From a plasmid: a stretch of DNA of 64,000 nt. The notes below the pieces were generated by a model that searched no databases, had not been told where the DNA came from, and saw only the letters and a list, made by a program, of their open reading frames with translations. A program made the position numbers and the translations under genes. Positions 21,990 through 60,760 of the stretch are shown here, one piece after another. The stretch is taken from the sequence record CP121101.1, one strand, 5' to 3'. Positions within the stretch are counted from its first letter, which is position 1; the number at the start of each line of letters is the position of its first letter.

Positions 21990-22014
21990 TGTCTAACTCA
22001 AGCGTTAACCCAGG

Positions 22015-24204: not shown

Positions 24205-24209
24205 TTACG
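24205..24209. repeat. 5-bp target duplication TTACG of the Tn3-family element, left copy; right copy 27452..27456
   Basis: Identical pentamers directly outside both IRs. Confidence 0.65.
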
Positions 24210-38070: not shown

Positions 38071-38964
38071 TTAGCCACCCCTCAAGGTTGCCATCCACCG
38101 CTGTGCCTGCGCCACCAGTATCCCTCCGCCGGCGCTCTCCAGGATCGTCCGCACACTGCCGACCACGGCGCCAATCACTGACCATTTTGGGTTAGGGGAG
38201 GCGGCCTGGGCCTTGAGGGTATCCAGATCGGCCTGCAGCTCTGCACACGCCTCTCCCTGCAGTTGCCCTTGCGCGACCACCTGCTGCAGCCACGGCAACA
38301 AAGCCGCCAGCGCCTCGGACTTCTGCTCGCCTGTCACCGTCTGCTGTTGTTGGCCGCCGGGCGAGCCCAACATCATTTGACCTCCGATGACATCCCCCCC
38401 AATGAAAATATTGGTCACCGATTCCGCCTGCTTCTGCTCCTGGGTGGTAAAGCTCATCCCTTCACCTTGGATCCCCAACTCATCCAGATCGAGTGCCCAT
38501 TCAAGGACCTTAGTACGCACCGCACCGATCAAACGCTGGACCTGATTTGCTCCAAATCGAACTTGTGGTGCGATTGGCATTTTATAGAGAGCCGCTACCA
38601 TCTTCGATTGAGACGGGTCCATGGGCAACACTACATATTCTGTCCCTGAAGCCAATGGTTCCACTCCATCAATGGGATAATAGAAGGGACATGTTGTCAT
38701 CACCTCGTGAAGCTCTGCATTCAGGACCGGTAGCAGCACAAGACCTTTCCCCGGGTTAATGGCGTACAGTTGCCCCGTCAAAATCCGGTACTGAGGGATA
38801 ACAGCCGACTCTGGGTAGCCATCAAGTTCGTTTTTGATCCAGCTAACCCAGTCAGGCTGCTTGAGCTTACGTGCGGCCACCAGTGCGTTTCGCAGTAGAT
38901 CGGTTGTCTTGACTTCGGGATTACTGGCTATGGTGATGAGCTGAGGGATAAGGGCGGGCATCAA
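38071..38964 (-). CDS. Array paralog U8: AbiTii-like N-terminal domain protein with conserved Gln-rich/glycine-zipper C-terminus (297 aa, intact)
   Basis: N-terminus MPALIPQLITIASNPEVKTTDLLRNALVAARKLKQPDWVSWIKNELDGYP; C-terminus ...GQQQQTVTGEQKSEALAALLPWLQQVVAQGQLQGEACAEL...KWSVIGAVVGSVRTILESAGGGILVAQA. Confidence 0.7.
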   Translation of the reverse strand: MMPALIPQLITIASNPEVKTTDLLRNALVAARKLKQPDWVSWIKNELDGYPESAVIPQYRILTGQLYAINPGKGLVLLPVLNAELHEVMTTCPFYYPIDGVEPLASGTEYVVLPMDPSQSKMVAALYKMPIAPQVRFGANQVQRLIGAVRTKVLEWALDLDELGIQGEGMSFTTQEQKQAESVTNIFIGGDVIGGQMMLGSPGGQQQQTVTGEQKSEALAALLPWLQQVVAQGQLQGEACAELQADLDTLKAQAASPNPKWSVIGAVVGSVRTILESAGGGILVAQAQRWMATLRGG

Positions 38965-39203
38965 TGCGCTCCTGGGCGATATTGGGCCCTATTGTACCCG
39001 GGTTCGGTGGTTTGGATTGCAGGATTGCAAGCGGCAGGATCCCGGCCGCCCTCATGGCCAGCGGTTGGCTCACGTTGACCGGTCACCCAGCCGGCAAACG
39101 CGGCAGTTTACCCGTTCCGCAGGTGCTGCTAGAACCAACGCAAAACGACAAAAAATGCGGAGCTAAATGCTAAACGGTGATCCTCACTGGGTTGGTTGGT
39201 ATA

Positions 39204-39219
39204 CTGTGTTTTTATACAG
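39204..39219 (+). promoter_or_regulatory. LexA (SOS) box CTGTgtttttatACAG upstream of umuD
   Basis: Match to the gamma-proteobacterial CTGT-N8-ACAG consensus 10 bp upstream of the umuD start. Confidence 0.75.
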
Positions 39220-39228
39220 CAACCAGAG

Positions 39229-39660
39229 ATGACCAGCATGTTTGCTCAACCCGCCCCTAATGCTCCCTTGCTGGAGATCCCCCTGTTTCTCTCCCCTGTA
39301 GCCTGCGGCTTTCCGTCCCCGGCGCAGGATTACACCGAGCAAACCATAGACCTTAATCTGCTGTGCGTGGCGCACCCGGCGGCCACCTACTTTGTGCGGG
39401 CGGCCGGTGACAGTATGGTCGACCACGGGATCCGCGATGGCGACCTGCTGGTCGTGGACCGCAGTCGCAAGGCGCGCCACGGTAGCGTGGTGGTCGCCGC
39501 GGTCGATGGTGAGTTCACCGTGAAGCAGCTGCAGCTTGATCCCACTGTGGCCTTGCTCCCTGGCAACCCGGCCTATCGGCCTATCCATTTCAGTGAGGGG
39601 CAGGAGCTGGAAATCTTCGGGGTGGTGTCCTTTATCGTGCATCAGGTGGATGCCCCATGA
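39229..39660 (+). CDS. umuD: UmuD, LexA-like self-cleaving subunit of DNA polymerase V (143 aa)
   Basis: [10 protein letters not shown]...[25 protein letters not shown]...; ATGA overlap with umuC. Confidence 0.85.
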
Positions 39661-40936
39661 ACAAGTGCTGCACCGTCGCCCTGGTGGACGTGAACAACTT
39701 CTACGCTAGCTGCGAGCGGCTGTTTCGGCCCGACCTTAAGGGGCGGCCAATAGTCGTGCTCTCGAACAACGATGGCTGCGTGGTAGCCCGTTCGGCAGAG
39801 GCCAAAGCGCTCGGCATCAAGATGGGAGTGCCGTACTTTCAGATCCGTCAATTCTTCGAGGCTATGGGCGGGGTCTGGTTTTCCAGCAATTATGCCCTTT
39901 ATGGCGACATGTCGAACCGGGTGATGACCATTTTGGAGGGGATGGCCCCGGCGGTGGAGGTCTACAGCGTTGACGAGGCCTTTATCGAGTGAGCGAACGC
40001 TGGGCGGGCGACTTGGTGGCCTATGGCCACCAAGTCCGCGAGCGGGTGCAGCAGTGGACCGGGCTGACCGTGGGGGTCGGCATCGGCCCCACCAAGACGC
40101 TCGCCAAGCTCGCCAACTACGCCGCCAAGAAGTGGCCCGCCACGGGCGGTGTGGTCGATCTGCGGGATGAAGGACGCCGCGTCAGGCTGATGGCGATCAC
40201 CCCGGTAGACGAGGTATGGGGTATTGGTCGGCGGCTCACCGCCAAGCTGGAGACCCAGGGCATCAAGACCGTGGCGGAACTGGTCGCCGCCGACCCCAAG
40301 AGCCTGCGCCGCCGCTATGGCGTGGTGGTCGAGCGCACGGTGCAGGAACTGCGGGGGATACCCTGCGCTGAGCTGGTGCAAGTGGCCCAGGCCAAACAGC
40401 AGATTATCTGCTCGCGTTCGTTTGGGGAGCGCATCACCCAGATCGGCCCCATGCATCAGGCTCTGGCGGGTTACATGGAGCGGGCCGCCGAGAAATTGCG
40501 AGGGGAGGGGATGTGCTGCCGCCATGTCACCCTGTTCATTCGCACCAGCCCATTCAGCGACCGGGAGCCCTATTACGGCAACCAGGTGAGCAGCAGGCTG
40601 GTCATGCCCACCCATGACACCCGGGCGCTGCTGGCTCTTATCCCCGAGCTACTCCCCCGCATCTGGCGTGACGAGCAGCGTTATCAGAAGGGAGGCGTGA
40701 TGCTGGCCGACTTCACCCCCGCCAACATGCAACAGGGCGACCTGTTCGCAGCTGAGCTGCAATCTCCGCGCAGTGAGGCGCTGATGCAGGTCATCGACAA
40801 GATCAATCAGGGGAGGCTTGGTAAAGTCTTCTTCGCGGCCCGAGGCCAAGAGAACAGAGAATGGATGATGAAGCGAGAGCAGTTGAGCCCTCGTTATACC
40901 ACTGCCCTACATGAATTGCCGATCGCAATGACATAA
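39657..40936 (+). CDS. umuC: UmuC, Y-family DNA polymerase V catalytic subunit; apparent frameshift near 39990 (ORFs 39657..39992 and 39989..40936)
   Basis: [46 protein letters not shown]...; combined ~425 aa. Confidence 0.85.
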
Positions 40937-41058
40937 CCATGATTTTGAGTGATGAGGGGAAAAACCATTCCACTAAAGATGAGTTATTTCCTCCTTCTTC
41001 GGCTGTTTTCCCAAAATGCAAAGCGGACTGTCGCCCCGCCCATGAATCCGGCTATCAA

Positions 41059-41936
41059 TCAGCTACCGGTCAAGATAGCCAGCCACCCCAGCGCTTGTGC
41101 CGAAAGCACTCCTCCGGCGCCTTCCAGGATCGCCCGCACACTGTTGGCCAAGGTTCCAATCAACGGCCAGCTCGGCGTGGGGGCGTCGGCCTGCGCCTGC
41201 AGGGCTGCATGCTTGGCCTGCAAATCGGCGTGTGCCGATACCGATAGCGTTCCCTCGGCGTTCACCTGCTGGAGCCAGGCCAGCAAGAAGACAGAGCATC
41301 GGTCTTTTGCTCGCCGGACACTGTCTGCTGTTGATGGCCCCCGGGCGAGTTCAGCTGAATTTGAACACCAGTCGCATTCCCTCCGATGTGTATGCTCACC
41401 GGCGCCACCTGCCGTTCTTGCGGAGTGACGCTCATGCTGTCCCCCTGAACACCGGAAGCGGCCAAAGCGAGTGCCCAGTCTAGCACCCGCTCCTGCACCG
41501 CCGCGATGAGGGCCCGCATCTGGACCGTCGGCATACAAATCTCCACCTCCCGTTCGGTACCGATTTCGGCCATCAGCAAGCTCATGAGCTCAGGGGGGAA
41601 TCGGACCCTCAGTGCTTTGCCGGTTGCGGCCAGCTCAGCCAGCTCGCTTGCGGGCAGCGAGAGCGGGCAAGTTTGCCACTGTACCGCCCGCTCGGTGTTG
41701 GCAACTGACAGCAAGTGGTGGGACCCTGCCTGCCAGTACGCCAGATTCCCGCGCCGCTGGCGATAACGGGGCACACCGCAGCCGTCAGGATAGCCCTGTA
41801 GCTCATGGTCAAGCCAGATGATTGCCTCGGGCTGTTGGAGCAGACGTGCCACCACCTTTGCCATGCGCAGCAACTTAGTGATTTCAACGTTCGGATCGCT
41901 GGCCAGGGTGATGAGTTCGGGAACATGGGCAGGCAT
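41059..41936 (-). CDS. Array paralog U7, AbiTii-like; apparent frameshift near 41280 (ORFs 41262..41936 and 41059..41538)
   Basis: MPAHVPELITLASDPNVEITKLLRMAKVVARLLQQPEAIIWLDHELQGYPDG...; conserved C-terminus in the second frame. Confidence 0.6.
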
Positions 41937-42029
41937 GGGGTGCTCCTGGGCAATAGTGGGGGCCTATTGTACCCGGTTTCGGTCGTGCGGGTTGTAGTGC
42001 TACAAGCGGAGAGGATCCGCTCCGGGTCA

Positions 42030-42058
42030 AAAAAAAGGGAGGCCGAAGCCTCCCTCCA
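42030..42058 (-). terminator. Rho-independent terminator (GGGAGGC-TTCG-GCCTCCC plus T8 on the minus strand)
   Basis: aaaaaaaagggaggccgaagcctccc read on the plus strand. Confidence 0.6.
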
Positions 42059-42498
42059 AAAAGTCACTTTTTGAACCAGTTTCACTGGCCTACGTGTAGG
42101 TGAAAGTGAAGAGAAATCTTCACTTGATACACGCAGATCAGCATCAAACCGCTAGCGATAATCATGCTTGATAGCATATCGATCTCCATATCAAATCAGG
42201 TGAATCCGTTCACCTGAGGGTTATTGGCCTCCTGGCTAGCCATAAGACTCGCTCTTGTGCCCGTGTTGACATTATACACCCTGCCCCCCAACATTTTTCA
42301 TAAATTCATGATAAATCATGTAGATAATATATAATTCTCACGCTGGTATCACTCGCCCCCAATACTTGACCAGCCCTGTTTATCTACGAAGTATTCCCCG
42401 CGTCCACAATATGGGCTGCACCAGTTGATCTGGCTTGTATCTCGCAACGCCACCCGCCGCACGAAGAAAACGTGGCCTGCTGCCTCTGCCGGACTAGC

Positions 42499-43356
42499 TC
42501 AGTGGCCGTTAAGGGTTGCCAGCCACTTCAGCACCAGTTCGCTCAGAACCCCGCCGCCGGCTCCTTCCAGAATCGCCGCAACAGTGCTGGCCACCGCAGC
42601 GATCACCGGCCATTTCCACTTGGGGGCGGCGGTCTGGGCCTTGATAGTATCCAGCTCGCTCTGAAGCACATTGCCGTTTGCCAGCTGCAGTGGCTTCTCC
42701 TGCGCCACCCCAGGCTGGTCCGTAGCCTTCTGCCCGCCGGTGATGGTTTGCTGTTGCTGGCCCCCGGGCGAGCTCACCATCAGTTGACCACCGTTGAACC
42801 CGCCCTCGATGCGAATGGTAACCGGCGCCAGCGGCTGGGGCGAGGAGGGCATTTCGTCCCCCTCGATCCCGGCCTCAACCAAGTCGAGCACCCAGGTCAA
42901 CAGTTGGTCCCGGACCGCATCAACAAGTGCGCGGATCTGATTGCCGCCAACCACCCGTACCGGCTCCATTGAGATATTCAGGTCTTGCATCAGCATGGCC
43001 ATCATCTCCGGCGGGAGAACCATGCTCACATTTTTCCCGGGAATAGCCACGTCTTCCAACCCGCTGATGGGCTGACCAATGCTGCATGTCGAGACAGCTT
43101 CTGCGAATTCAGGGTGGTCGATGATGATGGGGATCAGCCCTCGAAAGGGATTCCGAGCTTTCAATTCACAGCGTATGACACGATAGGAGGGCAGCTTGGC
43201 ATCATCCGGATAGCCCCGCAGCTCATGGTCGATCCAGGTAGCCCACTCAGCCTGTTTTAGCATACGGGCGACCACCTTGGCCTTGCGGAGCAGATCGGTG
43301 GTCTTAACTGCCGGATCACCGGCCAGGGCAATCAGGTCAGATAGCGAGGTGGACAT
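42499..43356 (-). CDS. Array paralog U6, AbiTii-like (intact, ~285 aa)
   Basis: MSTSLSDLIALAGDPAVKTTDLLRKAKVVARMLKQAEWATWIDHELRGYPDD...KWKWPVIAAVASTVAAILEGAGGGVLSELVLKWLATLNGH. Confidence 0.7.
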   Translation of the reverse strand: MSTSLSDLIALAGDPAVKTTDLLRKAKVVARMLKQAEWATWIDHELRGYPDDAKLPSYRVIRCELKARNPFRGLIPIIIDHPEFAEAVSTCSIGQPISGLEDVAIPGKNVSMVLPPEMMAMLMQDLNISMEPVRVVGGNQIRALVDAVRDQLLTWVLDLVEAGIEGDEMPSSPQPLAPVTIRIEGGFNGGQLMVSSPGGQQQQTITGGQKATDQPGVAQEKPLQLANGNVLQSELDTIKAQTAAPKWKWPVIAAVASTVAAILEGAGGGVLSELVLKWLATLNGH

Positions 43357-43535
43357 CGAGGTGCTCCTGGGCGACAAGGGAGGTCCAGTGTACCCGATCT
43401 GGCCCGGTCAGTTGCAACGCTGCAAGCGGGTCGGATACAGCCGGTCCGCTCTGGCTGGATTTGAGCTTGGCTTTGTCCGTTGGCCCCAGTATGCAAAGCG
43501 GGGCCGCAGCCCCGCTCATACCCCGACGATAGCGA

Positions 43536-44410
43536 TCAGCCGCCGCTCAAGCTGGCCAGCCACTTCAGCACCAGCTCGCTCAGCACCCCGCCGCCGGCGC
43601 CTTGCAGCACGGCCAGCACGCTACTACCGGCCAGCACGACGATCAGCGGCCATTTCCGCTTGGCGGTGGCGGCCTGGGGCTTGAGGGTGTTCTGCTCGCT
43701 CTGCCGCGTGTCGCGGTCTGCCGGCTGCCGTGGTGCATCCGCGCTCCCCTGCGCCAACCCGGACGGGCCCGCGGCCTTCTGCTCGCCGGTGACGGTTTGC
43801 TGTTGCTGGCCTCCCGGCGAGCTCACCATGACTTGGCCACCGTGGAACCCGCCCTCGATGTGAACGGTCACCGGCGCCAACGGCTGGGGTGGGGAGGGCA
43901 TCCCGTCCCCCTCGATCCCGGCCTTGGCCAGCTCGAGTGCCCAGTCCAACACCTTGTCACGGACTTGAGCTACGACGGCCTCAGTTGGGATGCGTCCAGT
44001 TGATGCACGACCTGGTACTGATCGCGGGCTTTCGCTGACAAGCCATCGTAAACGCGATGCCCAGAGGGGAGTTGCACATAGAGGGTGCCTTGTGACCCCA
44101 GCGCCTCCAACTTGCTGATCGAATCAAAACAGAGGTGAGCCTGAGCGGGAATCTCACCGTCAGTTTGGAACGTAAACAGATCAGTCAATTCGCCTGTCTG
44201 GACATCCCGCAGGTACACCGGGGCACGGATAAAACGGTATAGAGGAAGAGGATCTGACTCACGGTAGCCCCGCAGCTCCAGGTCGATCCAGGCTAACTGG
44301 TCGGATAGCTGGCACCGGTGGGCGATCACCTTGGCCTTGCGCAGCAGATCGGCTGTCTTGACGGCCGGATCGCTGGCCTGGGCGATGAGTTCAGGGAGTG
44401 GGGCGGGCAT
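43536..44410 (-). CDS. Array paralog U5, AbiTii-like; apparent frameshift near 43952..43970
   Basis: MPAPLPELIAQASDPAVKTADLLRKAKVIAHRCQLSDQLAWIDLELRGY...; conserved C-terminus in the 43536..43952 frame. Confidence 0.6.
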
Positions 44411-44587
44411 CCAGGCGCTCCTAGGCGACAAAAGAGCCCCAGTGTACCCGATTTGGCCTGCGCGATTGCAGCGCTGCAAGCGCGGGGCGGACCCCGCTCG
44501 CCCTCGCTGACCCGATTGGGGGTGGGCTTTGGCCGCTGACCAAGAAAGCAAAGCGGGGCCGCAGCCCCGCCCATGCCCCGATACCGC

Positions 44588-45489
44588 TCAGCTACCGGTC
44601 AAGGTTGCTAGCCACCCCATCGCCTGCGCCGCCAGCACTCCGCCGCCAGCGCCTTCCAGAATTGCCCGCACACTCCCGGCCACGGCACCGATCACCGGCC
44701 ATTTGGGGTTGTGGGAGGCAGCCTGGGCCTTGAGCGTATCCATCTCGACCTGCAGCTCCGCGCACATCTCCCGCTGCAGTTGCCCTTGTGCGATCACCTG
44801 CGCCAGCCACGGCAACAATGCCGCCAGGGCGGCCTCTTTCTGCGCACTTGTCACCGTCTGCTGTTGTTGGCCACCGGGCGAGTCCTGCATAAACTGAAAA
44901 CCGGTCGCATTCCCCCCGATGTGAATGTTCACCGGCGCTAGCTGCTTGGCCTGCTGCTGTTCCTGTGGGGTGAAACTCATGCTTCCCCCTGGATCCCTGC
45001 ATCAGCCAGGTCAAGCGCCCAGCCAAGCACCTTGTCTCTGATCAGTTCAAGGAGTCCGCGCAGTTGGCTGGTTGCCAGTACGACCTCCGGTGTCATTGGC
45101 ATATCCCCCTGCATTGCCATAATTTCCGCAGCAACGTTTGGAGGAAACAAGTACCTGACAATCCCATGCTCAGCGGTCGCCAACACTTCCAGCTCGCCGA
45201 CCGGTTTGACAAACCGACAGGTTGATAATGATTCGATCAGCCCCGGAGAGTCGGACATAAGCGGGATCAGTCCCCGAATGGGATTTCTTACCTTCAATTC
45301 TCCCCGTAGCAACCGGTAGGGCGGTAACTCAACACCATCGGGATAGCCCTGCAGCTCATAGTTGATCCAGGCAGCCCATTCCGGCTGCTTTAGCTGACGT
45401 GCGGCCACCCATGCCTTGCGTAGCAGGTCGGCGGTCTTGATGGTCGGATCGCTGGCCATGGCGATGAGTTCAGGGATAAGGGCGGGCAT
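44588..45489 (-). CDS. Array paralog U4, AbiTii-like; apparent 1-nt homopolymer deletion at ~44978 (QGEA* then MSFTPQ)
   Basis: MPALIPELIAMASDPTIKTADLLRKAWVAARQLKQPEWAAWINYELQGYPDG...; C-terminus in ORF 44588..44980. Confidence 0.65.
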
Positions 45490-45665
45490 TGATGCGTTCC
45501 TGGGCAAAATGGGAGCCCCCATTGTACCCGTTTTCGGTCGTGCGGATTGCAGTGCTGCAAACGGCAGGATCCCGGCTCCTCGCTGGCCCGATTTTGGGCG
45601 GGCTTGAGCCGCTGACCAAGAAAGCAAACGCCCCGCATAAGCAGGGCGTGATCTGGGCACCATCG

Positions 45666-45944
45666 TTACAGGCCGTACTGGCCCACCTCGTGGATCCATT
45701 TTGTATCGTCATTGCCTGGCCGAGCCGCGGTATACCCTGCCCAACAGAAGAACAGCAGGGCGCCTATCACCAGCAACACCTGCACAACCGTGAACCCCGC
45801 TCTGGCGCCATAACGATTTTTTTTCAACGCATCCAGTATCCAGATCCCAGCGGCAACAAACAGCAGGATCAGCAGCGCTGTCATGCCCTCCTGTCTGATC
45901 CCCGCGATCAGCATCTTCAACGCATCCCAAACCCAAACCATCAT
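45666..45944 (-). CDS. Small two-helix membrane protein (~92 aa), paralog of 47193..47471
   Basis: MMVWVWDALKMLIAGIRQEGMTALLILLFVAAGIWILD...VQVLLVIGALLFFCWAGYTA; followed by a hairpin terminator. Confidence 0.55.
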   Translation of the reverse strand: MMVWVWDALKMLIAGIRQEGMTALLILLFVAAGIWILDALKKNRYGARAGFTVVQVLLVIGALLFFCWAGYTAARPGNDDTKWIHEVGQYGL

Positions 45945-46111
45945 GTCACCCTCCAGAACTACCAAGCCACGCCGTTTAGCGCAAAATATACTGTATCCAT
46001 ATACAGTCTCGCAAGCGTACCATGCCGCCCCGCTCGAGCGCACCACCGACCATCCTCCCTTGTCGAGTGAGCGGCGGGATCAGCGCAGCGCGGCAGCCGT
46101 CCCCCGCGCTA

Positions 46112-47013
46112 TCAGCTGCCGCTCAAGGTGGCCAGCCAGCCCAGCGCCTGCGCCGCCAACACTCCACCGCCGGCGCCTTCCAGCACCACCCGCACACTGC
46201 CGGCCACGGCGCCGATCACCGGCCATTTTGGGTTAGGGGAGGCGGCCTGGGCCTTGAGGGTGTCCAGTTCGGCCTGCAACTCAGCACACGCCTCTCCCTG
46301 CAACTGCCCTTGCGCGATCACCTGCTGCAGCCACGGCAACAAGGCAGCCAGCGCCTCGGCCTTCTGCTCGCCTGTCGCTGTCTGCTGTTGCTGGCCGCCG
46401 GGCGAGCTCTGCATGAACTGAAAACCGGTCGCATTCCCCCCGATGTGAATGTTCACCGGCGCCAGCTGCTGGGCTTGCTGCTGCTGCTCCTGGGGGGTAA
46501 AGCTCATCCCGTCCCCCTGGATCCCTGCATCAGCCAAGTCAAGCGCCCAAGTCAGCAGCTTGTCTCGGACCGCCTCAATAAGCCCACGAACTTGGTTTGA
46601 CCCCAAGGCGAGTTCTGGCACCCCTGGCAGTGAAAGCTCTTGTATCAGAAATTGGCTCTGTTCGGGGGTGAAGAACGAACGAACAACTTCACCAGGTACA
46701 GCCAGGTCCTCCAAGGCCCCCATCGGATGACCAAACCGGGATTCCGTTATTAACCTGTTCATCTCGGCATTCCTAATTGGCAATGGAAGCCTCCCATGAC
46801 CAGGCACATCGACTTTGAGCTCACCTTGCAGCACACGGTAGGGCGGTAAATCCCCGGACTGCGGATAGCCTTGCAGTTCATGGTCTATCCAGGTGGCCCA
46901 CTCGGGCTGCTTGAGCAAGCGGGCGGCCACCATAGCCTTGCGCAGCAGGTCGGTAGTTTTGACGGTCGGATCGCTGGCCATGGCGCGATCAGCTCGGGGA
47001 TAAGGGCGGGCAT
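46112..47013 (-). CDS. Array paralog U3, AbiTii-like; 2-nt insertion near 46985 disrupts the first 10 codons; alternative start at MASDPTVKT
   Basis: ...ELIA|MASDPTVKTTDLLRKAMVAARLLKQPEWATWIDHELQGYPQSGDLPPYRVLQGELKV...; conserved C-terminus. Confidence 0.65.
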
Positions 47014-47192
47014 CGGGTGCTCCTAGGGGTCGACAAGGGGGGCCCATTGTACCCGGTTTGGCCCTGTCGATTGCAGCGCTGCGAGCGGGGCGGACCCCGC
47101 TCGCCCTCGCTGACCCGATTGGGGGCGGGCTTTGGCCGCTTACCAAGAAAGCAAACGCCCTGCATAAGCAGGGCGTGATCTGGGCACCATCG

Positions 47193-47471
47193 TTACAGGC
47201 CGTACTGGCCCACCTCGTGGATCCATTTTGTATCGTCATCGCTTGGCCGAGTCGCTGTATACCCTGCCCAACAGAAGAACAGCAGGGCGCCTATCACCAG
47301 CAACACCTGCACAACCATGAACCCCGCGCCGGCGCCATAACGATTATTTTTCAACTTCTCCAGTATCCCGATCCCAGCGGCAACTAACAGCACGATCAAC
47401 AGCGCTGTCATACCCTCCTGTCTGATCCCCGCTATCAGCATCCTCAACGCATCCCAAACCCAATCCATCAT
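47193..47471 (-). CDS. Small two-helix membrane protein (~92 aa), paralog of 45666..45944
   Basis: MMDWVWDALRMLIAGIRQEGMTALLIVLLVAAGIGILEKLKNNRYGAGAGFMVVQVLLVIGALLFFCWAGYTA. Confidence 0.55.
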   Translation of the reverse strand: MMDWVWDALRMLIAGIRQEGMTALLIVLLVAAGIGILEKLKNNRYGAGAGFMVVQVLLVIGALLFFCWAGYTATRPSDDDTKWIHEVGQYGL

Positions 47472-47762
47472 GTCACCCTCCAGAACAACAACCAGGCCGC
47501 ACCGTTGTGCGCAAAGCACTGTATCCATATACAGTCTCTTTAGCGTACCATGCCGCCACGCACGAGCGCACCACCGACCATCACTCCTTCGTCGAGTGAG
47601 CGGCGGGATCAGCGCTGGGCGGTAAGGGATGGCATCGGTTCGCCATCGCGCACCCACCAGCCGGCAAGCACAGCGCGGCAGTGTCCTTTTGCCCTTGGCT
47701 TTGGCCGTTGGCCCGGAAAACAAAGCGGGGCCGCAGCCCCGCTCATACCACGACGATAGCGA

Positions 47763-48643
47763 TCAGCCGCCGCTCAAGCTGGCCAGCCACTTCAGCACCA
47801 GCTCGCTCAGCACCCCGCCGCCGGCGCCTTGCAGCACGGCCAGCAGGCTACTACCGGCCAGCACGACGATCAGCGGCCATTTCCGCTTGGCGGTGGCGAC
47901 CTGGGGCTTGAGGCTGTCCTGCTCGCGCTGCCGCGTGTCGAGGTCTGCCGGCTGCCGTGGTGCATCCGTGCTCCCCTGCGCCAACCCGGACCCGGACGGG
48001 CCCGCGGCCTTCTGCTCGCCGGTAACTGTTTGCTGTTGCTGACCTCCCGGCGAGCTCACCATGACTTGGCCACCGTGGAACCCGCCCTCGATGTGAAAGG
48101 TCACCGGCGCCAACGGCTGAGGTGGGGAGGGCATCTTGTCCTCCTCGATCCCGGCCTCGGCCAGGTCGAGTGCCCTGCTCAGCAGCTTGTCCCGCACGGC
48201 ATCGATAAGGCCTCGTACCTGGTTAACCCCCAGCACCCGCTCCGGCACCCTCGAGATCCGCAGTGCCTGCATCATCTCGACGGCCACATCTGCAGCAAAG
48301 CAAAAACTCAGGGGTTTCCCTGGTATCACCGCCTCTTCCAGCGGGCCAACAGGCTGGCCACACCGGCACCAGGTATAAAGGTAGGCCACCTGGGGATCAT
48401 CAAACTGGATCGGGATCAGCCTACGCGCGGAGTCTCTGGCCATCAGCTCACACCGCATCTGGCGGTAGGGTGGCAACTCTACCTCGGATAGCCCTGCAGC
48501 TCATACCCGATCCAGGTAGCCCACTCGGGTTGCTTGAGCCGGCGGGCGACCACCAGGGCCTTGCGCAGCAGATCGGCGGTCTTGACGGTCGGATCGCTGG
48601 CCAGGGCGATCAGGTCAGATAGCGGGGTGGGCATCGAGGTGCT
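47763..48643 (-). pseudogene. Array paralog U2, AbiTii-like; frame broken after ...ELQGYPR* near 48480 and resuming at ORF 47763..48476
   Basis: MPTPLSDLIALASDPTVKTADLLRKALVVARRLKQPEWATWIGYELQGYP then a stop; the rest is in another frame. Confidence 0.5.
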
Positions 48644-48837
48644 CCAGGGCGACAAGGGAGGCCCAGTGTACCCGATTTGTCACGGTTGATTGCAGCGCTG
48701 CAAGCGGCAGGATCCCGGTCCCTCGCGGTGTCGGATTTGGGGCGGGCTTTTGCCGCTGACCAAGAAAGTAAAAGCCCCGCAGGGCGGGGCAATGTGTGAC
48801 GGCAAGGCCGGTGATCACGGTCGGGGCGGGGGGGCAG

Positions 48838-49122
48838 TCACCTGACCTTGTGGAAGATGATGAGGATCAGGGGGACGCAGATCAGGAAGCCCAGGGAGGC
48901 CGCGTCAAACACCACGCCGGTGGCTTGCATCACCGCGTCCATCATGGCGCGGTGATACTCCAACGAGACGGGGCCAGTCCCGATCACGCTCTCCTTCTCA
49001 GCAATGTGCCCGAAGCTGGTAGAAGCCACCCCCAGCCAGAGGTAATAGCCCAGGGAAACCAGCGCAATGCCGGCCCAACGTAACACGGTTTTACTCTTAC
49101 TTGCTGATATGACTTTATCCAT
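48838..49122 (-). CDS. Small membrane protein (94 aa)
   Basis: Two hydrophobic helices: GIALVSLGYYLWLGVAS and GFLICVPLILIIF. Confidence 0.45.
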   Translation of the reverse strand: MDKVISASKSKTVLRWAGIALVSLGYYLWLGVASTSFGHIAEKESVIGTGPVSLEYHRAMMDAVMQATGVVFDAASLGFLICVPLILIIFHKVR

Positions 49123-49225
49123 CTAGTCGTCCATCCACCGCGCCACCGGAATACGGTTTCCGCCATCCACACGACACCTTTCAGAATAATCACAGCGAAA
49201 AATAGTACCGCTATATATTATGTCA

Positions 49226-49516
49226 TCACTTATTGCCGCCCATGTTACTATATTTAGTTTTTCTATTTTCGACCCACCTCACAACTAATAAATATGAAAA
49301 GTAAAGCGCGGCGAATGAAATCACTGAGCCAAAATAAAGAAAATAAATCATGTCGTACACGCCATTGACTAGGCGGCTATACTCAGTGCCAATTAAATCA
49401 AACTCTAATCCATATTTTATATTGACCAATACGAGAACCAATATTGCGCTCATGATTATAAAATGAATCACAAAGGGCATTGCCACCCCTGTTATTTTAA
49501 GGATTTTCTTAATCAT
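49226..49516 (-). CDS. Small polytopic membrane protein (96 aa) in a low-GC island; candidate immunity protein
   Basis: AT-rich; starts immediately downstream of the toxin-like gene. Confidence 0.45.
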   Translation of the reverse strand: MIKKILKITGVAMPFVIHFIIMSAILVLVLVNIKYGLEFDLIGTEYSRLVNGVYDMIYFLYFGSVISFAALYFSYLLVVRWVENRKTKYSNMGGNK

Positions 49517-50429
49517 TGCTGCTACCTAATGAACCACCAAATGTCCCTGGGGAAACGCCACTTGAGCTGCCACCTGCAGCACCGGAACTATTGCCGGAGG
49601 AACCAAGGGTTTCTCCAATAGGTCCTGCACTCTTCATTGGCGATAAGCCCTCACCGTTCGGGATGGCTGTCTTCATAGCCGAAGTCACCTCAACTACAAG
49701 CATGTCAGAGCTTGAGGCTAGCTGTGACAGGTGGCGTTCGAGTGATGACGGTATGACGAAGTCCTCTGTGTACGTGTTCCCTATCGGCCCGTTGACAGTG
49801 AAGACGCTTGTCCCTGCCAGCTTCAACGCATCAACGGAAGTCGTTGTGCAGTTACTACCAGTTAGATCGTATTTATTTATCACTCTGCCAGTTTCTTTTA
49901 TTTTATCTTTTTCTGGTTGAGTGGAACTGGAAAGCCATTTTCTTTGGAATATTGCCAACGTCAAATTTTTCTCATCTACATCCATGATTTTAAATGCTCT
50001 CGCATTCATGCTATATAGTTCGTGTTGATAATACTCCCGAGCTTTTGCAAAGCCATATTGAATAAGTACGCCGTCACCGACAGGGGATACAGGATTACCA
50101 TCAAATCGACCGTATGTGTATACGTGCATACTCCACTCTTTGTGGACTGAAATAAAGGCGTGCCCGGTTCCCTTTGTTTCAGTCCACAGAAATACACCGT
50201 TTGCTAAAATATCTCGTGGATTTTCGCAAATTTCATTTGCTATCCAATGCCCTTTGTTCGTTTCAATTAAGGTGACGCTGCCACGATCATCAGATCGAAA
50301 GCTTGAGGTTTTCTCGCCTTCCCATTCGCTTTTACCCCAGCGCTGCCATCCACCATTCCACCACTGCCCACTTCTGCTCGGATCCACATTTCCTCCACAG
50401 CCTTGCTTCCCAAAAAACCATTGTGCCAT
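49509..50429 (-). CDS. Putative secreted or cytotoxic hydrolase-like protein (~306 aa) in a low-GC island, with a Gly/Ser-rich C-terminal tail
   Basis: Trp/Gly-rich N-region, TGHAFISVH and LTGSNCTTTSVDALK motifs weakly resembling papain-fold hydrolases, GSSGNSSGAAGGSSSG tail; GC far below the flanks. Confidence 0.4.
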   Translation of the reverse strand: MAQWFFGKQGCGGNVDPSRSGQWWNGGWQRWGKSEWEGEKTSSFRSDDRGSVTLIETNKGHWIANEICENPRDILANGVFLWTETKGTGHAFISVHKEWSMHVYTYGRFDGNPVSPVGDGVLIQYGFAKAREYYQHELYSMNARAFKIMDVDEKNLTLAIFQRKWLSSSTQPEKDKIKETGRVINKYDLTGSNCTTTSVDALKLAGTSVFTVNGPIGNTYTEDFVIPSSLERHLSQLASSSDMLVVEVTSAMKTAIPNGEGLSPMKSAGPIGETLGSSGNSSGAAGGSSSGVSPGTFGGSLGSSND

Positions 50430-50591
50430 GTATGGGTAATCCGACCAACCGAGCGGATACCCAGACAAGTCACCGTCTGTCCGTTGCCGTACTGCAACTG
50501 GGAGCAGCGCTAGGCGGTAAGCGAGGACATCGGTTCGCCATCGCACACCCGCCAGCAGGTAAGCGCAGAGCGGTAGCCCTCCCCCGCGCCA

Positions 50592-51488
50592 TCAGCTGCC
50601 GCTCAAGGTGGCCAGCCTGCCCAACACTGCTTCCGTCAGTACCCCGCTGCCGGCCCCTTCCAGGATCGCCCGCACACTGTTGGCCACGGCGCCGATCACC
50701 GGCCACTTGGGCTTAGGGGAGGCGGCCTGGGCCTTGAGGGTATCCAGCTCGGCCTGCAGCTCCGCACACGCTTCTCCCTGCAGTTGCCCTTGCGCGATCA
50801 CCTGTTGTAGCCACGGCAACAAGGCCGCCAGGGCAACTTCCTTCTGTTCAATCGTCACAGTCTGCTGTTGCTGACCGCCGGGCGAGTTTTGCATCAACTG
50901 AAGACCATGAGCATCTCCATTGATGTGAATGTGGGTTACCGGCGCCACCTGCTGGGCTTGCTGCCGCTCTTGAGAAGTGAAGCTCATGCCTTCCCCCAAG
51001 ATCCCCTCCTTTTCAAGCTGCAGTGCCCAATTCAAAACCTGATTTCTGACCGCCCCCAAGATCCGGTTCATGCTGGCCAACGTGAACCGACGAAGAGGGG
51101 TACAGTTCGTATCACATGCCGCCCGCAAGGCATCAGCTTCGCGCGGGGAAAATTGCATATGAATATCGTCAGATTCAGCACACCACCCCTCAATCTCGTC
51201 AACAGGCGTGTCAAAGTGGCAGAGTTGCCATCGAAATGCGGCCTCTGCAGACGGAAAGACCACCCCCTTCAGTCCATGGTGCCCATCGATCAGGACTTCT
51301 CCTTGTACATGCCGATAGACTGGGATGGCATCATCCGGCCCGTATCCATTGAGCTCGTGTCCAAGCCAGGTAACCCACTCGGGCAACTGCAGGCGGTGGG
51401 CCGCCACTAGGGCGCGGCGTAGCAGATCAGCGGTTTTAACGGCCGGATCGTTGGCCAGGGCAATCAGTTCGGGGATGAGTGCGGGCAT
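50592..51488 (-). CDS. Array paralog U1, AbiTii-like (298 aa, intact)
   Basis: MPALIPELIALANDPAVKTADLLRRALVAAHRLQLPEWVTWLGHELNGYGPDD...GGQQQQTVTIEQKEVALAALLPWLQQVIAQGQLQGEACAELQAELDTLKAQAASPKPKWPVIGAVANSVRAILEGAGSG. Confidence 0.7.
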   Translation of the reverse strand: MPALIPELIALANDPAVKTADLLRRALVAAHRLQLPEWVTWLGHELNGYGPDDAIPVYRHVQGEVLIDGHHGLKGVVFPSAEAAFRWQLCHFDTPVDEIEGWCAESDDIHMQFSPREADALRAACDTNCTPLRRFTLASMNRILGAVRNQVLNWALQLEKEGILGEGMSFTSQERQQAQQVAPVTHIHINGDAHGLQLMQNSPGGQQQQTVTIEQKEVALAALLPWLQQVIAQGQLQGEACAELQAELDTLKAQAASPKPKWPVIGAVANSVRAILEGAGSGVLTEAVLGRLATLSGS

Positions 51489-51985
51489 GGACGTGCTCCT
51501 AAGCGATATTAGGCCCCCATTGTACTCGGTTTCGGTAGTTTGGATTGCAGGGCTGCAAACGGCAGGATCCCGCTCGTCCTCAATGGCCGGTTTTTCAAAT
51601 CCCTCTTACTGCTATTAGCGTCTGGTGTACCATTCACGGGAGCAAACACCGCCATCCGGTTCGAACACCCCCATATGGCCAGATAGCCACGCACGGTGAA
51701 GCTCTGTGCCAACAATCAGCCTCCTCAACCAACGTGGCCATAGATGTTGCTGATATCCCTCAAGATATGCCCACAGAAGAATCCGCTTACTCATTTTTTC
51801 CTTTCTCAACGAGGTTGAGTGCATGGTAGGAGATACCTGCTAACTCCCGCCACACACATCACAATCAGGTTCGCCCGGTAGTACGTCGCCGGCCGGGGTC
51901 TTGTGCGGGGCGTCTTGTTCGGCGGCATGGCTGCCGAACAACCGACCCAGGCGGTTAACAAGGGTCATCGGGTGCGTCGTCACCG

Positions 51986-52318
51986 TCATTGTCGCAAGAT
52001 CAGATGCCGATACAGGGCATCCTCGATGCTCTGGCGCTGGTGCAGCACCAGCAGGATATAGGCCGCATCGGGCAGCACACTGTAGAGCACCCGGTAGCCC
52101 TTCTGATCGATACGCTCGCGCACATCGAGGCCATAGTCAGCGGTCGCCGGGCACTGGCGATAGAGCAGGGGATTGGCACTGATCGCCGCCACGGCCTCGG
52201 TCAGCAACGTCTCCACCAGGACGGCGGCCTGCTCGGGCCCGCAGTGCACCGCATTGAAGGCTTCGATGTCCTGCAGGCAGGTCAGCGCGGTCGCGGTCAC
52301 GCGCACCGACAGCGTCAT
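51986..52318 (-). CDS. parE: Type II toxin, ParE/RelE family (110 aa)
   Basis: Size, position downstream of the antitoxin with overlap, and ParE-like sequence character. Confidence 0.5.
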   Translation of the reverse strand: MTLSVRVTATALTCLQDIEAFNAVHCGPEQAAVLVETLLTEAVAAISANPLLYRQCPATADYGLDVRERIDQKGYRVLYSVLPDAAYILLVLHQRQSIEDALYRHLILRQ

Positions 52319-52596
52319 GTGCGGGCCGCCCGCAGCAGGGCCAGGGCTTCATCCTCGCTGTAGCTGCGACCTGGCCGGCCAATGTCCTGGGTGGCCAGGG
52401 CGACCAGCTTGACCAGCGCCTTATCTTCCCGCGCCTGGTGCAGATCGGCCAGCTCTTGGGAGCGGTCGGCGGCGGTGGTGATAAACAACTCGGGGGTGCC
52501 GTTCTTTGTGACGTAGACCCCGCCGCTGAAATTCTCTGGAGTGCCCAACGCCTCGCGCGCGGCGCGCTGGGACATGGCTTTGACGACTTCTCTCAT
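52315..52596 (-). CDS. Type II antitoxin, Phd/YefM-ParD-like (~93 aa)
   Basis: MREVVKAMSQRAAREALGTPENFSGGVYVTKNGTPELFITT...; overlaps the toxin gene by 4 nt. Confidence 0.5.
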   Translation of the reverse strand: MREVVKAMSQRAAREALGTPENFSGGVYVTKNGTPELFITTAADRSQELADLHQAREDKALVKLVALATQDIGRPGRSYSEDEALALLRAART

Positions 52597-53371
52597 GGCG
52601 TTATCTCTTACTGGTGTCCGTGATGGGATCAGTATACCCCTGCCCGGAACGCAGCGGTACAAAATTGATTACCAATATTACCCACTAACCCGCCGTGCCG
52701 GTTGTAGGGCTGCAAGTGGCAGGATCCCGGCCCCTCGCTGGCCAGATTTGGGGCGGGCTTTGGCCGCTGACCAAGACTCCCAAATCCCCTTAGCCATCCC
52801 CTCACCACAACATATGGTGCCTTTGCAGCTGGCCGGGGACACTATATCTAGTGGATCTGGCGAGGATCTGCCCCGCGCCGCGCCCTTCCTGGCTCCCCCC
52901 GCGCTTTTGACTTTTCGCACTATCCGGTAAAACTCCCAAACCGGCGCCGGGCCGGCGCGGATTTATTGGCCCTGACAGCGGCCCCCGGATCTGGCATCCT
53001 GCCGATCACCGACTTCCCCCCCGCGACGAGGATCCCGATGCAGATCACCCCGCTTGGCCATGGCCACCCCCTGGCCACCCTGCACCAGGGCGGCCCCCTG
53101 GTGCGCCCCGTTATCCCTTGGCCCATAAAGTGCGGGTGGTGCTGGCCGATGGAACTGGCTGAAAGAGACAGAGGGGGAGGGATATAACATTGGTGGTGCT
53201 GACGCCGCGGTGCTGCTACAGGAAAACCCGCAATTTACGGGAAGGTGGAGTTGACGCTGGCCGGCACAGCCCACAGGATAGGGGACGCAAACAGCCCTCG
53301 CGTCAACGGCGCTCGGGGTTATCAAAATCACTTTTGAACAATCAATATCAACATTCGATGGAGTCCTTGCC

Positions 53372-54286
53372 ATGTTTGCCACCACTGTGCGCTTTATGAA
53401 GCATCAGCTGGGCCACCCCGCCCGCCTGAATGCCCTGCTGGCCACCGATCCCGCCCTGGGCTATGCCCTCGAGCTGCCCCCCTCTGTCAGTACCGACAGC
53501 ATCACTCGCTGGCACGAATGGCGACCAGCAGGCTGGAACGCCCAACCCGGCGAGCTGCGCGGCTGGGCACGGATCAATGGCCAATACCAGGGTCATGCCA
53601 TCCTGAACGGTGCGCTGGCCACCCTCTGCGAACAGGCACAATTTGAAGACTGGACGTGTGATATTCGCCAAGTGCAGGTGCTCTCTGCCTCCAAGAGCCC
53701 CCTCGAAGCCTTTGCCGATCTGGATGCCTTTGCCGAGGCCCGTTGCCGGGGCTACCTCGATGACGCCAGCTCCGACAACATCGCCCGCAACCTGGTCCAT
53801 GGCGAGGTCAGGATCATGCAACCGGGTCGCGGCGACTATTTTCTCTACCACGGCTGGGATGGCCGGCTCTGCCTCATCAACAGCGGCGGCAGTCACCACT
53901 TTGCCACCGCCCGTTACCTGGCCGGCGTCGCCCGCCAACCGGTCGAGCTCAAAGGGATGCTCAAGGGCTACCTGCTCAACCCTGCCGCCGTCACCGGCCT
54001 GACAGACGAATATGAGCTGTTCGCCATCACCCGGGATCCGCTGCTCTGGGATGAGTTGTTTGAGTCGATGCGTGCATTGCAGGCCACCTGGTTTGCCGGC
54101 GACTTACCCCGCCCTCACCGCGAGGGGCGGGCACTGCTGCTGCCCAGGGACGACCGCAATTCGATGAAGGTGGCCAGCGCCCTGCGCAAGGCCGGAGTGA
54201 CCGATCTAGGGAGTTACCTGCAGCGGCAAGTCCATCGCCAACATGACTATCCGGTCGGGGCGATCATGGCCGGTTGTCACGGGTAA
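53372..54286 (+). CDS. Hypothetical protein (304 aa)
   Basis: Long ORF with typical GC. Confidence 0.45.
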   Translation: MFATTVRFMKHQLGHPARLNALLATDPALGYALELPPSVSTDSITRWHEWRPAGWNAQPGELRGWARINGQYQGHAILNGALATLCEQAQFEDWTCDIRQVQVLSASKSPLEAFADLDAFAEARCRGYLDDASSDNIARNLVHGEVRIMQPGRGDYFLYHGWDGRLCLINSGGSHHFATARYLAGVARQPVELKGMLKGYLLNPAAVTGLTDEYELFAITRDPLLWDELFESMRALQATWFAGDLPRPHREGRALLLPRDDRNSMKVASALRKAGVTDLGSYLQRQVHRQHDYPVGAIMAGCHG

Positions 54287-59583: not shown

Positions 59584-59789
59584 ATGTATAGTTTGCCTAC
59601 ACTACAATGTCATACCACACAAAAATGTTAACACACTATTACGCGCTTCATTTCATTTGGCAAGGTAAACCCCCTACTTCGTTCAGCGTTTCGCAAGGTA
59701 ATCTAACATCCCGGTTGTTCTTTCATATGCAGACCCCTTCATTTGGCTCTGGGCCTCCTCCCTTCGCTCACCGCAGGCCGCCCCGGGCG

Positions 59790-60760
59790 CCGAGACCGCG
59801 GCGGGTCGGTGCCACCAGCTACACCGACCCGCCGGACGCAGTACCGGATCCACCCCGCCGGCGGAGGCCACCCTGGGCCCGAGCTCGTCGGCGGCCCGGG
59901 GCCACCTGCTACACCGGCCCGCCGGACGCAGCACCGGATCACCCCCGCCGGCGGAGGCCACCCTGGGCCCGAGCTCGTCGGCGGCCCGGGGCCACCTGCT
60001 ACACCGGCCCGCCGGACGCAGTACCGGATCCACCCCGCCGGCGGAGGCCACCCTGGGCCCGAGCTCGTCGGCGGCCAGGGGCCACCTGCTACACCGGCCC
60101 GCCGGACGCAGCACCGGATCACCCCCGCCGGCAGTGGCCACCCTGGGCGCCGAGCTCGTCGGCGGCCCGGGGCCACCGGCAGTACCGACCCGCCGGACGT
60201 CGCACCGGATCACCCCCGCCGGCAGTGGCCACCCTGGGCACCGAGCTCGTCGGCGGCCCGGGGCCACCTGCTACACCGGCCCGCCGGACGTCGCACCGGA
60301 TCACCCCCGCCGGCAGTGGCCACCCTGGGCGCCGAGCTCGTCGGCGGCCCGGGGCCACCTGCTACACCGGCCCGCCGGACGTCGCACCGGATCACCCCCG
60401 CCGGCAGTGGCCACCCTGGGCGCCGAGCTCGTCGGCGGCCCGGGGCCACCTGCAGCACCGGCCCGCCGGACGCAGCACCGGATCACCCCCGCCGGCAGTG
60501 GCCACCCTGGGCGCCGAGCTCGTCGGCGGCCCGGGGCCACCTGCTACACCGGCCCGCCGGACGCAGTACCGGATCCACCCCGCCGGCGGAGGCCACCCTG
60601 GGCCCGAGCTCGTCGGCGGCCCGGGGCCACCTGCTACACCGGCCCGCCGGACGCAGCACCGGATCACCCCCGCCGGCAGTGGCCACCCTGGGCGCCGAGC
60701 TCGTCGGCGGCCCGGGGCCACCAGCTACACCGGCCGCGGTGAGCGCCACCGGAGCCTAGG
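59790..60760. repeat. GC-rich tandem repeat array, ~10.5 copies of alternating 90-bp and 91-bp units
   Basis: The motif gagctcgtcggcgg recurs at 59881, 59971, 60061, 60152, 60243, 60334, 60425, 60516, 60606, 60697. Confidence 0.85.

Follow-up and report, generated by a model that had tools for sequence, protein, structure and literature searches.

The 64,000-nucleotide stretch of plasmid DNA analyzed here (sequence record CP121101.1; hereafter the window) contains a tandem array of paralogous genes of the AbiTii family, and ahead of the own promoter of each of these lies a near-invariant 14-base-pair (bp) palindrome, TTGCAG-NN-CTGCAA (henceforth the dyad), whose distribution and probable function are considered below. 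AbiTii genes are abortive-infection (Abi) genes, which act in phage defence. Six of the window paralogs match the Pfam model PF18864 with E-values of 1.8e-17 to 2.1e-33, and their matches to AbiTii in PADLOC reach E-values as low as 1e-35.

38071..38961, minus strand: AbiTii paralog of 296 amino acids (PF18864, E=2.8e-33; PADLOC AbiTii)
41936, 43356, 44410, 45489, 47013, 48634 and 51488: starts of the other AbiTii paralogs

The paralogs are conserved at the N- and C-terminus and variable in the middle, and the 296-amino-acid paralog recurs with identical sequence on at least 13 public contigs. They sit on a conjugative plasmid of the Aeromonas type, the backbone of the window-type plasmid being MPF_G/ICEclc-like. 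At 97% identity, the region matches Enterobacter cloacae pIncA_P7536 (an IncA hybrid) and Aeromonas sp. pAER-f909 (171 kb); the latter codes for a MOBH relaxase and transfer genes typical of integrative and conjugative elements (ICEs; PFL_4669/4695, TIGR0375x). A scan of GTDB genomes recovered this AbiTii subfamily at only four loci, all in Aeromonas. One flank of the array carries a DUF6685 gene, a degraded tyrosine recombinase and a KfrA_N protein, and the other a mer transposon; the array itself is interrupted by an umuDC operon on the other strand. The array of F-like relatives occupies the leading region, with oriT/traM on one side and repA on the other, and is surrounded there by anti-restriction, methylase, RadC and umuDC genes in one orientation. 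No Rfam family was matched within the array.

Copies of the dyad in the window

An earlier reading made from the letters of this DNA (hereafter the sequence-only reading) had listed nine dyads. All nine exist in the window, seven of them exactly where they had been placed, whereas two lie one base away, at 44466-44479 rather than 44467-44480 and at 51545-51558 rather than 51544-51557. With a tenth, degenerate copy the set is as follows.

39017..39030: dyad TTGCAGGATTGCAA, with a C>T change at plus-strand position 9, in the unit of the 296-amino-acid AbiTii paralog (38961-38071, minus strand)
41992..42005: dyad TTGTAGTGCTACAA of unit U7, the sole copy altered on both arms
43412..43425: dyad TTGCAACGCTGCAA
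44466..44479: perfect dyad TTGCAGCGCTGCAA, with an artefactual 2-bp insertion 4 nucleotides upstream (44483-44484)
45547..45560: perfect-arm dyad TTGCAGTGCTGCAA
47071..47084: dyad TTGCAGCGCTGCGA, with a single arm change
48690..48703: perfect dyad TTGCAGCGCTGCAA
50484..50497: tenth, degenerate dyad TTGCCGTACTGCAA, about 55 nucleotides ahead of where a non-AbiTii gene of about 305 amino acids is annotated to start
51545..51558: perfect-arm dyad TTGCAGGGCTGCAA, in the unit of a 298-amino-acid AbiTii paralog (51488-50592)
52702..52715: dyad TTGTAGGGCTGCAA, previously called an orphan, followed 21 nucleotides on by TAATAT (52680-52675, minus strand) and then by an antitoxin/ParE toxin operon

The counterparts of the degenerate copy at 50484 are perfect in related plasmids (L014:4067 and L017:6569). 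Base composition alone predicts about 0.0035 perfect copies of TTGCAG-NN-CTGCAA per 64 kb. Matches to TTGCAGCGCTGCAA with up to three mismatches number 19 in the window, against 6.2 +/- 2.7 in 100 shuffles (maximum 13), and TTGCA-N4-TGCAA with up to one mismatch is found 17 times, against 3.6 +/- 2.0 in shuffles. A perfect TTGCA-N4-TGCAA at 31180-31193 (TTGCAAAGTTGCAA) was set aside as a chance match in an IS26-like terminal sequence, outside the dyad family; the surrounding region (30367-31997) consists of two abutting direct repeats of about 0.81 kb each, 98% identical and IS26/IS6-like.

Anatomy of the promoter modules

Every array dyad is followed by the conserved leader that the sequence-only reading had described. 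On the minus strand each unit consists, in order, of the dyad, a spacer, the hexamer TACAAT or TACACT, a G-rich leader of about 20 nucleotides, an AGGAG-type Shine-Dalgarno sequence and an ATG about 55 nucleotides past the dyad. Counted with its Shine-Dalgarno sequence, the leader is about 30 nucleotides long. The distance from dyad to hexamer had been put at 19-27 bp; as measured, it is 19 nucleotides in four units, 20 in four others and 21 at the supposed orphan.

38991..38996, minus strand: -10 hexamer TACAAT in the unit of the dyad at 39017
41966-41971, 43387-43392, 44441-44446, 45521-45526, 47046-47051, 48665-48670 and 51519-51524: equivalent -10 hexamers
44480..44550, minus strand: conserved block of about 65 nucleotides from terminator to dyad, ggtcaRCGGCCAAAGcc ... 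CCAAATCCGG ... CGAGGG ... cGGGATCCt
44551..44572, minus strand: intrinsic terminator of the preceding unit
42034-42057, 45628-45649, 47155-47176, 47723-47744 and 48774-48790, minus strand: other intrinsic terminators

An nhmmer profile constructed from the eight window units and run on related loci yielded 57 distinct copies on Aeromonas plasmids, and those with an AbiTii-type leader were reduced to 29 clusters of less than 90% identity. Among these clusters the hexamer reads TACAAT in 17, TACACT in 8, TATAAT in 2 and TAGAAT in 2, and is thus always TAnnnT, while the modules of non-AbiTii genes have TAATAT or TATTAT. Since T1, A2 and T6 are invariant across the 29 clusters while positions 3-5 change, the pattern is that of a genuine, functional sigma-70 -10 element. 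Its spacing from the dyad is 19 nucleotides in 13 clusters, 20 in 15 and 21 in one. A scan for consensus -35/-10 pairs found no TTGACA-like -35 element 16-18 bp upstream of the -10 at any unit, and the hexamers at that spacing match the -35 consensus at no more than two of six positions by eye.

Upstream of the dyad, conserved sequence reaches for about 65 nucleotides, up to an intrinsic terminator, and this block belongs to the portable promoter module. A terminator scanner found six minus-strand intrinsic terminators upstream of dyads, and these show every AbiTii paralog to form a separate transcription unit. With a transcription start predicted about 7 nucleotides past the -10, the dyad would span about -46 to -33 and be centered at about -38.5 to -39.5. 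The word GGCCAAA or GACCGAAA, followed by (T/C)C(C/G)GG, was also observed three times per module (e.g. in 44480-44550 and 44447-44465, minus strand): the upstream block has it near -100 and -85, and the promoter spacer has a conserved copy (CC 0.93, GG 0.90-0.97) near -25. Its recurrence suggests that it may be a second recognition element in the module.

The dyad is distinct from the LexA box, as the sequence-only reading had stated: it contains CAG-N2-CTG, whereas the LexA box is CTGT-N8-ACAG. True boxes of the latter form lie in the array at 39204-39219 (the umuD promoter), 45991-46006 and 47519-47534, and the window as a whole has five perfect ones against 0.8 expected. Two identical LexA boxes (CTGTATCCATATACAG) overlap promoter-like hexamers upstream of small open reading frames (ORFs) of about 92 amino acids, which are interspersed between the AbiTii paralogs and are membrane-protein-like in sequence. 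The array therefore mixes predicted dyad-controlled genes with predicted SOS-controlled ones.

Conservation of the dyad: protein-binding site or hairpin

Across the 29 clusters the 12 arm positions of the dyad are conserved at 0.90-1.00 and the two central positions are free, while the flanks are mostly conserved at 0.45-0.8, a few isolated positions being higher. It could be argued that the dyad has no function of its own and hitch-hikes in a duplicated promoter unit homogenized by gene conversion, given that the units are paralogous and clearly exchange segments. However, within the same units the dyad is far better conserved than both flanks, and it also occurs in unrelated contexts, such as repA leaders, an exonuclease gene, traH and the metagenome contig L034 (see below), which makes a mere passenger very hard to credit.

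The sequence-only reading had further interpreted the change on both arms in U7 as compensatory covariation and had offered an RNA hairpin as an alternative to a protein-binding site. Neither proposal withstood comparison across relatives. RNAalifold, applied to 25 diverged modules, returned a total of -4.6 kcal/mol, to which covariation contributed -0.04 kcal/mol; the five dyad pairs were unaltered in 22-25 of the 25 sequences, and four one-sided or broken events stood against the one two-sided change, that of U7. Over all copies there are about nine one-sided variants for this single two-sided one.

One-sided variants: TCGCAG.., ..CGCGGCAA, ..GCCCGCAA, TTACAG.., ..CTGTAA, TTGTAG..CTGCAA (twice), ..CTACAA and position 6/9 variants

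The U7 orthologue in pAeme6 (L009:7055) has the first of the two U7 changes only (TTGTAG..CTGCAA), and T at position 4 alone or A at position 11 alone is seen in further copies; position 4/11 is hence the most tolerant position of the half-site. We accordingly see no evidence of selected symmetry in the U7 variant, which is best read as one lineage-specific second hit.

A hairpin, be it in RNA or in single-stranded DNA, might act as a leader structure, as part of a terminator or as a single-strand promoter or priming signal of the leading region. The arms are indeed perfectly self-complementary, the F-like relatives hold the array in the leading region, the dyad at 11721 of the Aeromonas plasmid pO23AP4 extends to a 26-bp palindrome directly after a stop codon, and single-strand DNA folds of whole modules have z-scores of -0.9 to -3.1. 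Yet these z-scores derive largely from the terminator, with no consensus structure, and in the weak consensus fold the arms are invariant rather than covarying. One-sided changes leave C-A mismatches on the sense strand, the dyad lacks a T-run behind it and lies upstream of the -10 and of the predicted start, and a stem of five to six pairs is far below those of known Frpo-type elements. We therefore regard a hairpin as very unlikely. What is conserved is sequence rather than pairing, and it is located upstream of the -10, which favors recognition of double-stranded DNA by a dimeric protein. Thus, the other option of the sequence-only reading, a dimeric DNA-binding protein, remains the best interpretation. 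The pattern to be explained, a promoter that recurs with a conserved dyad in the place of an operator, is real.

The dyad beyond the AbiTii array

The sequence-only reading had envisaged a regulator dedicated to the array; this has to be given up, as on Aeromonas plasmids the dyad also precedes repA, leading-region genes, a toxin-antitoxin operon and a KfrA-like gene. The promoter module was recovered in 30 PLSDB records, 29 of them from Aeromonas and with several different backbones. The full module (terminator, dyad and -10) precedes not only AbiTii genes but also the antitoxin/ParE operon at the supposed orphan, the gene of about 305 amino acids behind the copy at 50484, a 109-amino-acid gene in pO23AP4 and a KfrA_N gene in pAsa5. 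In pAER-f909 all ten copies with up to one mismatch, together with the two-mismatch U7 copy, are confined to the array region.

Seven perfect dyads, against 0.0036 expected, are present in the complete 60-kb F-like plasmid pO23AP4. They are located 52 nucleotides upstream of repA, 18 nucleotides before an ORF for a 295-amino-acid exonuclease, inside traH, after a TrfB/KorA-like gene and elsewhere; those in the backbone are flanked to give ATTGCAG-NN-CTGCAAT. The repA-proximal dyad is shared by pAsa5. In pAh2111-2-KPC (L017), which is typed as IncU, one dyad lies 21 nucleotides upstream of an unrelated repA of the IncFII family and another in the 3' end of parB. These three plasmids have homologous repA leader regions but non-homologous RepA proteins. 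Just downstream of repA, in what is probably the origin region, several F-like Aeromonas plasmids keep a one-mismatch dyad, TTGCTGGCCTGCAA, with the same mismatch: pO23AP4 (21247), pAsa5 (1295 and 17252) and L019 (14663).

We also scanned metagenomes with the 16-bp form of the dyad, which returned mostly chance matches and only two contigs with more than one copy. The exonuclease context recurs on the metagenome contig L067. Another contig, L034 (LLEN01000289.1, 7.7 kb, 44% GC), has three perfect TTGCAGTACTGCAA dyads, at 4222, 4814 and 7588, adjoining integrase fragments and Abi-like ORFs, which suggests that the operator may exist outside the high-GC modules of Aeromonas plasmids.

The proximity of a small tyrosine recombinase of about 252 amino acids to the array raises the question of whether the dyad is its recombination site, with units being swapped like cassettes in the manner of integrons, pdif modules or shufflons. 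The divergent recombinase gene flanks the array in pO23AP4, pAsa5, L017, L018 and L019 and is degraded in the MOBH plasmids, where the dyads also appear to decay; moreover, some flank junctions fall exactly at a dyad (e.g. L012:7379 versus L014:4067 and L014:1056). However, 6-bp arms around a variable 2-bp center are at odds with the 6-8 bp overlap region of tyrosine recombinases, the homology boundaries of other units lie 17-35 nucleotides upstream of the dyad, and the differing flanks look like diverged versions of one promoter. Nor do the dyads at repA and inside traH mark borders of cassettes, and we hold a recombination site to be improbable.

Comparison with known plasmid and host operators

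The dyad sequence was not found in any paper of the literature searched, and the paper on pRAS4 contains nothing relevant to it. The dyad matches none of the KorA/KorB, ArdK-type, CopB, LexA, FNR/CRP and AcaCD sites with which it was compared. In its arrangement, it nevertheless recalls several of these.

The closest parallels are with the kil-kor system of RK2 (IncP-1), whose KorB operators (OB, TTTAGCSGCTAAA) and KorA operators are likewise short perfect palindromes present in many copies per plasmid, at replication, maintenance and accessory promoters as well as at non-promoter and intragenic positions. The center of the dyad agrees with that of class I OB sites (-39/-40), and pO23AP4 carries TelA-like (klaA/B-type) genes along with its TrfB/KorA-related gene. 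Unlike OB, the dyad has another sequence, of 14-16 bp with a free 2-bp center, and stands at promoters without a -35; furthermore, the KorA-like and ParB proteins of pO23AP4 do not co-occur with the dyad, which is known here from sequence.

This comparison raises the possibility, a special case of an operator, that the dyad is a parS- or OB-type site at which a clamp of the ParB/KorB family silences nearby promoters, perhaps serving as a centromere as well. RK2 carries 12 OB sites. In pO23AP4 the pattern by which KorB and ParB sites are recognized, a multi-copy palindrome of 13-16 bp at promoter and non-promoter sites, is seen in its seven dispersed 16-bp copies (ATTGCAGNNCTGCAAT), one lying within traH and another shortly downstream of the parA-parB operon. 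The L017 copy within the 3' end of parB, the class I-like position near -39.5 and an analogous 14-bp palindrome, in eight copies around an orphan parB of a Vibrio cholerae plasmid, point the same way. Against this, the pO23AP4-type ParB is found in only seven Aeromonas plasmids and has no homologue in pAsa5, pAER-f909 or the window, all of which keep dyads; the sequence is unlike that of OB in RK2, and the KorB site of RA3 (IncU), an inverted repeat containing a SnaBI site (IR-SnaBI), does not fit the dyad. We give a ParB/KorB site some weight, though we find it doubtful.

The V. cholerae plasmid (L150, NZ_CP043555.1) shares with pO23AP4 a PhD/YefM-like protein and lacks the TTGCAG dyad. Its eight perfect copies of the 14-bp palindrome TTTCGC(TT/AA)GCGAAA, at 19928-25868 and 47545, cluster around and inside the orphan parB, topA and a coupling-protein gene. 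Palindromes of 6-2-6 layout in multiple copies thus seem to recur on plasmids of this sort, perhaps in connection with ParB.

In the ArdK, StbA and KorA networks of IncW R388 and IncN pKM101, and in that of omega in inc18 plasmids, a small repressor acts through iterated sites on dispersed leading-region and stability operons. Leading-region and maintenance genes under such repressors are switched on when the plasmid reaches a new host and are repressed afterwards. The case at hand differs from these in the architecture of the dyad and in having an array of Abi-type paralogs as a target, and no regulator homologous to theirs was found. A further parallel is the CopB operator at IncFII repA: pO23AP4 and L017 have a small PhD/YefM-like gene (67-73 amino acids) at the copB position, with a dyad between it and repA. 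Unlike the CopB operator, this dyad lies near the repA start (21-52 nucleotides) rather than beside the small gene, and dyads also occur far from replicons; the small protein is unrelated to CopB, and pAsa5 has a different small protein there.

With class II sites of FNR and CRP (TTGAT-N4-ATCAA at -41.5) the dyad shares a 14-bp 5-4-5 layout, with TTG...CAA, over a missing -35. This is the basis of another alternative, in which the dyad is a class II activator site, of CRP/FNR type or for some other host factor, and a chromosomally encoded dimer bound to TTGCA-N4-TGCAA recruits RNA polymerase. The absence of a -35 hexamer, the resemblance to the FNR box, the constant spacer of 19-20 bp, the confinement of the module to Aeromonas plasmids of several backbones and the retention of dyads in plasmids devoid of any plasmid-borne candidate all agree with such a factor. 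On the other hand, the dyad would be centered at about -38.5 to -39.5, roughly 2 bp nearer to the -10 than the -41.5 of those activators, and the inner bases of its half-site, TTGCA(G), are unlike the FNR and CRP boxes known to us (TTGAT/ATCAA and TGTGA/TCACA). The backbone copies, 17-52 nucleotides from start codons, after stop codons or inside genes, do not have activator geometries, and the apparent decay of dyads in MOBH plasmids of the same genus would be unexpected. A host activator is accordingly conceivable, with the odds well against it.

The AcaCD and SetCD boxes of IncA/C plasmids and SXT are comparable in being the site of one regulator, a class II activator, repeated before many plasmid operons. 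They came into question since the nearest record is that of an IncA hybrid. The upstream block GCCCGCCCCAAATCGGGCC of the module loosely resembles the AcaCD/SetCD box TGCCCAAAAAGGGCA, though the dyad itself does not. Transcription from AcaCD promoters starts 63-65 nucleotides past the start of the motif (PMC4207636); both this distance and the spacing within the box misfit the module, and the backbone is not IncA/C, so this candidate was rejected. A sigma-54 promoter (GG-N10-GC ending in TTGCA) was likewise rejected by eye, its spacing being wrong and its upstream part not conserved.

Candidate regulators

Among the plasmid-encoded proteins considered as the cognate regulator, each candidate failed on at least one count. 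The TrfB/KorA-like protein of pO23AP4 is present in only 6 Aeromonas plasmids, its ParB in only 7 and the PhD/YefM-like 73-amino-acid protein at the copB-like position in only 10; none of the three is found in pAsa5, pAER-f909 or the window. The KfrA_N proteins of the window and pAsa5 are unrelated to each other, and the RepA proteins differ between plasmids. KfrA_N apart, no recognizable DNA-binding domain was detected in the proteins in or beside the array, small ORFs included. The DUF6685 protein of the window (304 amino acids; 53372-54286, plus strand) is the divergent neighbor of the array in nearly all array-bearing Aeromonas plasmids. DUF6685 was also rejected as the regulator: it is present in at least 22 of the 30 plasmids with the promoter module, but it is syntenic with the array and occurs in 777 PLSDB plasmids of many genera, with homologues in hosts such as E. 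coli, Acinetobacter and Pseudomonas. It is split by a frameshift in pAsa5, and no DNA-binding domain, solved relative or NCBIfam model could be detected for it.

A predicted operator of a plasmid-wide regulon

In light of the above observations, we lean toward the proposal that the dyad is an operator for a dimeric regulator in a plasmid-wide regulon of sigma-70 promoters devoid of a -35. A dimeric protein, perhaps of the helix-turn-helix type, would act in trans by binding the dyad at about -40 of such weak promoters, and its regulon would span repA, leading-region genes, the ParE toxin-antitoxin operon, the KfrA-like gene and the AbiTii array. As the operator is shared with these other genes, the array would be wired into the plasmid-wide regulon, and it may have been imported together with its promoter modules into the MOBH/ICE-like plasmid. 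The factor is most likely, by a slight preference over an activator, a global repressor of the Kor type that would keep RNA polymerase off the promoter. This preference stems from the backbone sites, which lie at varied distances from start codons, by ribosome-binding sites and inside genes, and from the fact that the known global regulators of plasmids are repressors.

Perfect dyads make up 8 of 17 module copies in the MOBH plasmids pAER-f909 and pAeme6 versus 15 of 17 in F-like plasmids (Fisher p=0.026), or 24 of 26 (p=0.003) if unclassified A. rivuli and A. sobria contigs are added to the latter, though the copies compared are phylogenetically non-independent. This suggests that the constraint on the dyad may be relaxed, and that dyads appear to decay, in plasmids that lack the F-like backbone and perhaps the regulator; the excess of perfect dyads in F-like plasmids fits a cognate factor tied to F-like backbones.

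Besides the non-independence of these copies, several observations weigh against the proposed regulon. The decay argument is weakened by pAsa5, which keeps perfect dyads without ParB or the 73-amino-acid protein, so that a chromosomal Aeromonas factor is equally possible. No gene for a cognate regulator was found in the window or in its full-length relative pAER-f909, whence the sites here may be unoccupied or served in trans, and all plasmid-encoded candidates tested (TrfB/KorA-like, ParB, 73-amino-acid, KfrA-like and RepA proteins) fail to co-occur with the dyad. Finally, the lack of a -35 and the fixed distance between dyad and hexamer resemble class II activation more than repression.

Sequence artefacts and other features of the window

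Between 37000 and 49000 the window differs from public contig L001 by one mismatch and 12 small indels, all of the latter at 481-497 modulo 500.

38990, 39989, 40991, 43981, 44484, 44982, 45990, 46488, 46987, 47492, 47997 and 48485: indels of 1-6 bp relative to public contigs that are otherwise 99.8% identical

This periodicity of about 500 bp suggests an artefact of assembly, polishing or construction. All apparently frameshifted paralogs of the window, as well as its split umuC, are products of these indels; the paralogs are intact in L001-L007 and L010 (289, 298, 300, 291, 285, 224 and 296 amino acids). None of the periodic indels falls inside a dyad.

Elsewhere in the window, an Rfam match to AAC_AAD_leader / attI (16496-16562, 69 bits) marks a class 1 integron in the resistance region that divides the array side from the traI side. 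Two tandem repeat arrays overlap or adjoin ORFs situated upstream of the region with the KfrA-like gene.

59776-60735: 10.6 tandem copies of a GC-rich 91-bp unit (93% matches)
63683-64000: 24/48-bp repeat up to the window end

Biological implications

For annotation, these results mean that the AbiTii paralogs are autonomous, terminated units and that the apparent pseudogenes of the window are sequence artefacts. More broadly, we tentatively posit, as a possibility rather than a firm prediction, that conjugative plasmids of Aeromonas have a global regulator, encoded on the plasmid or on the chromosome, which couples repA and the leading-region genes with the AbiTii battery. Under such control the defence genes of the array would all come on together, for instance by zygotic induction as the plasmid enters a regulator-free cell, and be silenced thereafter, and the arrays on MOBH plasmids would have escaped this control. 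With its 14 bp the dyad also offers a handle for fishing out a regulator of Aeromonas plasmids, among them the virulence plasmid pAsa5 and several that confer multidrug resistance. Iterated operators of plasmid regulons are already known as a kind; the twist here is the diversified array of Abi genes. If the proposed coupling is correct, seven or eight diversified Abi genes would be under one operator sequence shared with the replication initiator and early-entry genes, a concrete case of defence genes plugged into the core regulatory circuit of a plasmid.

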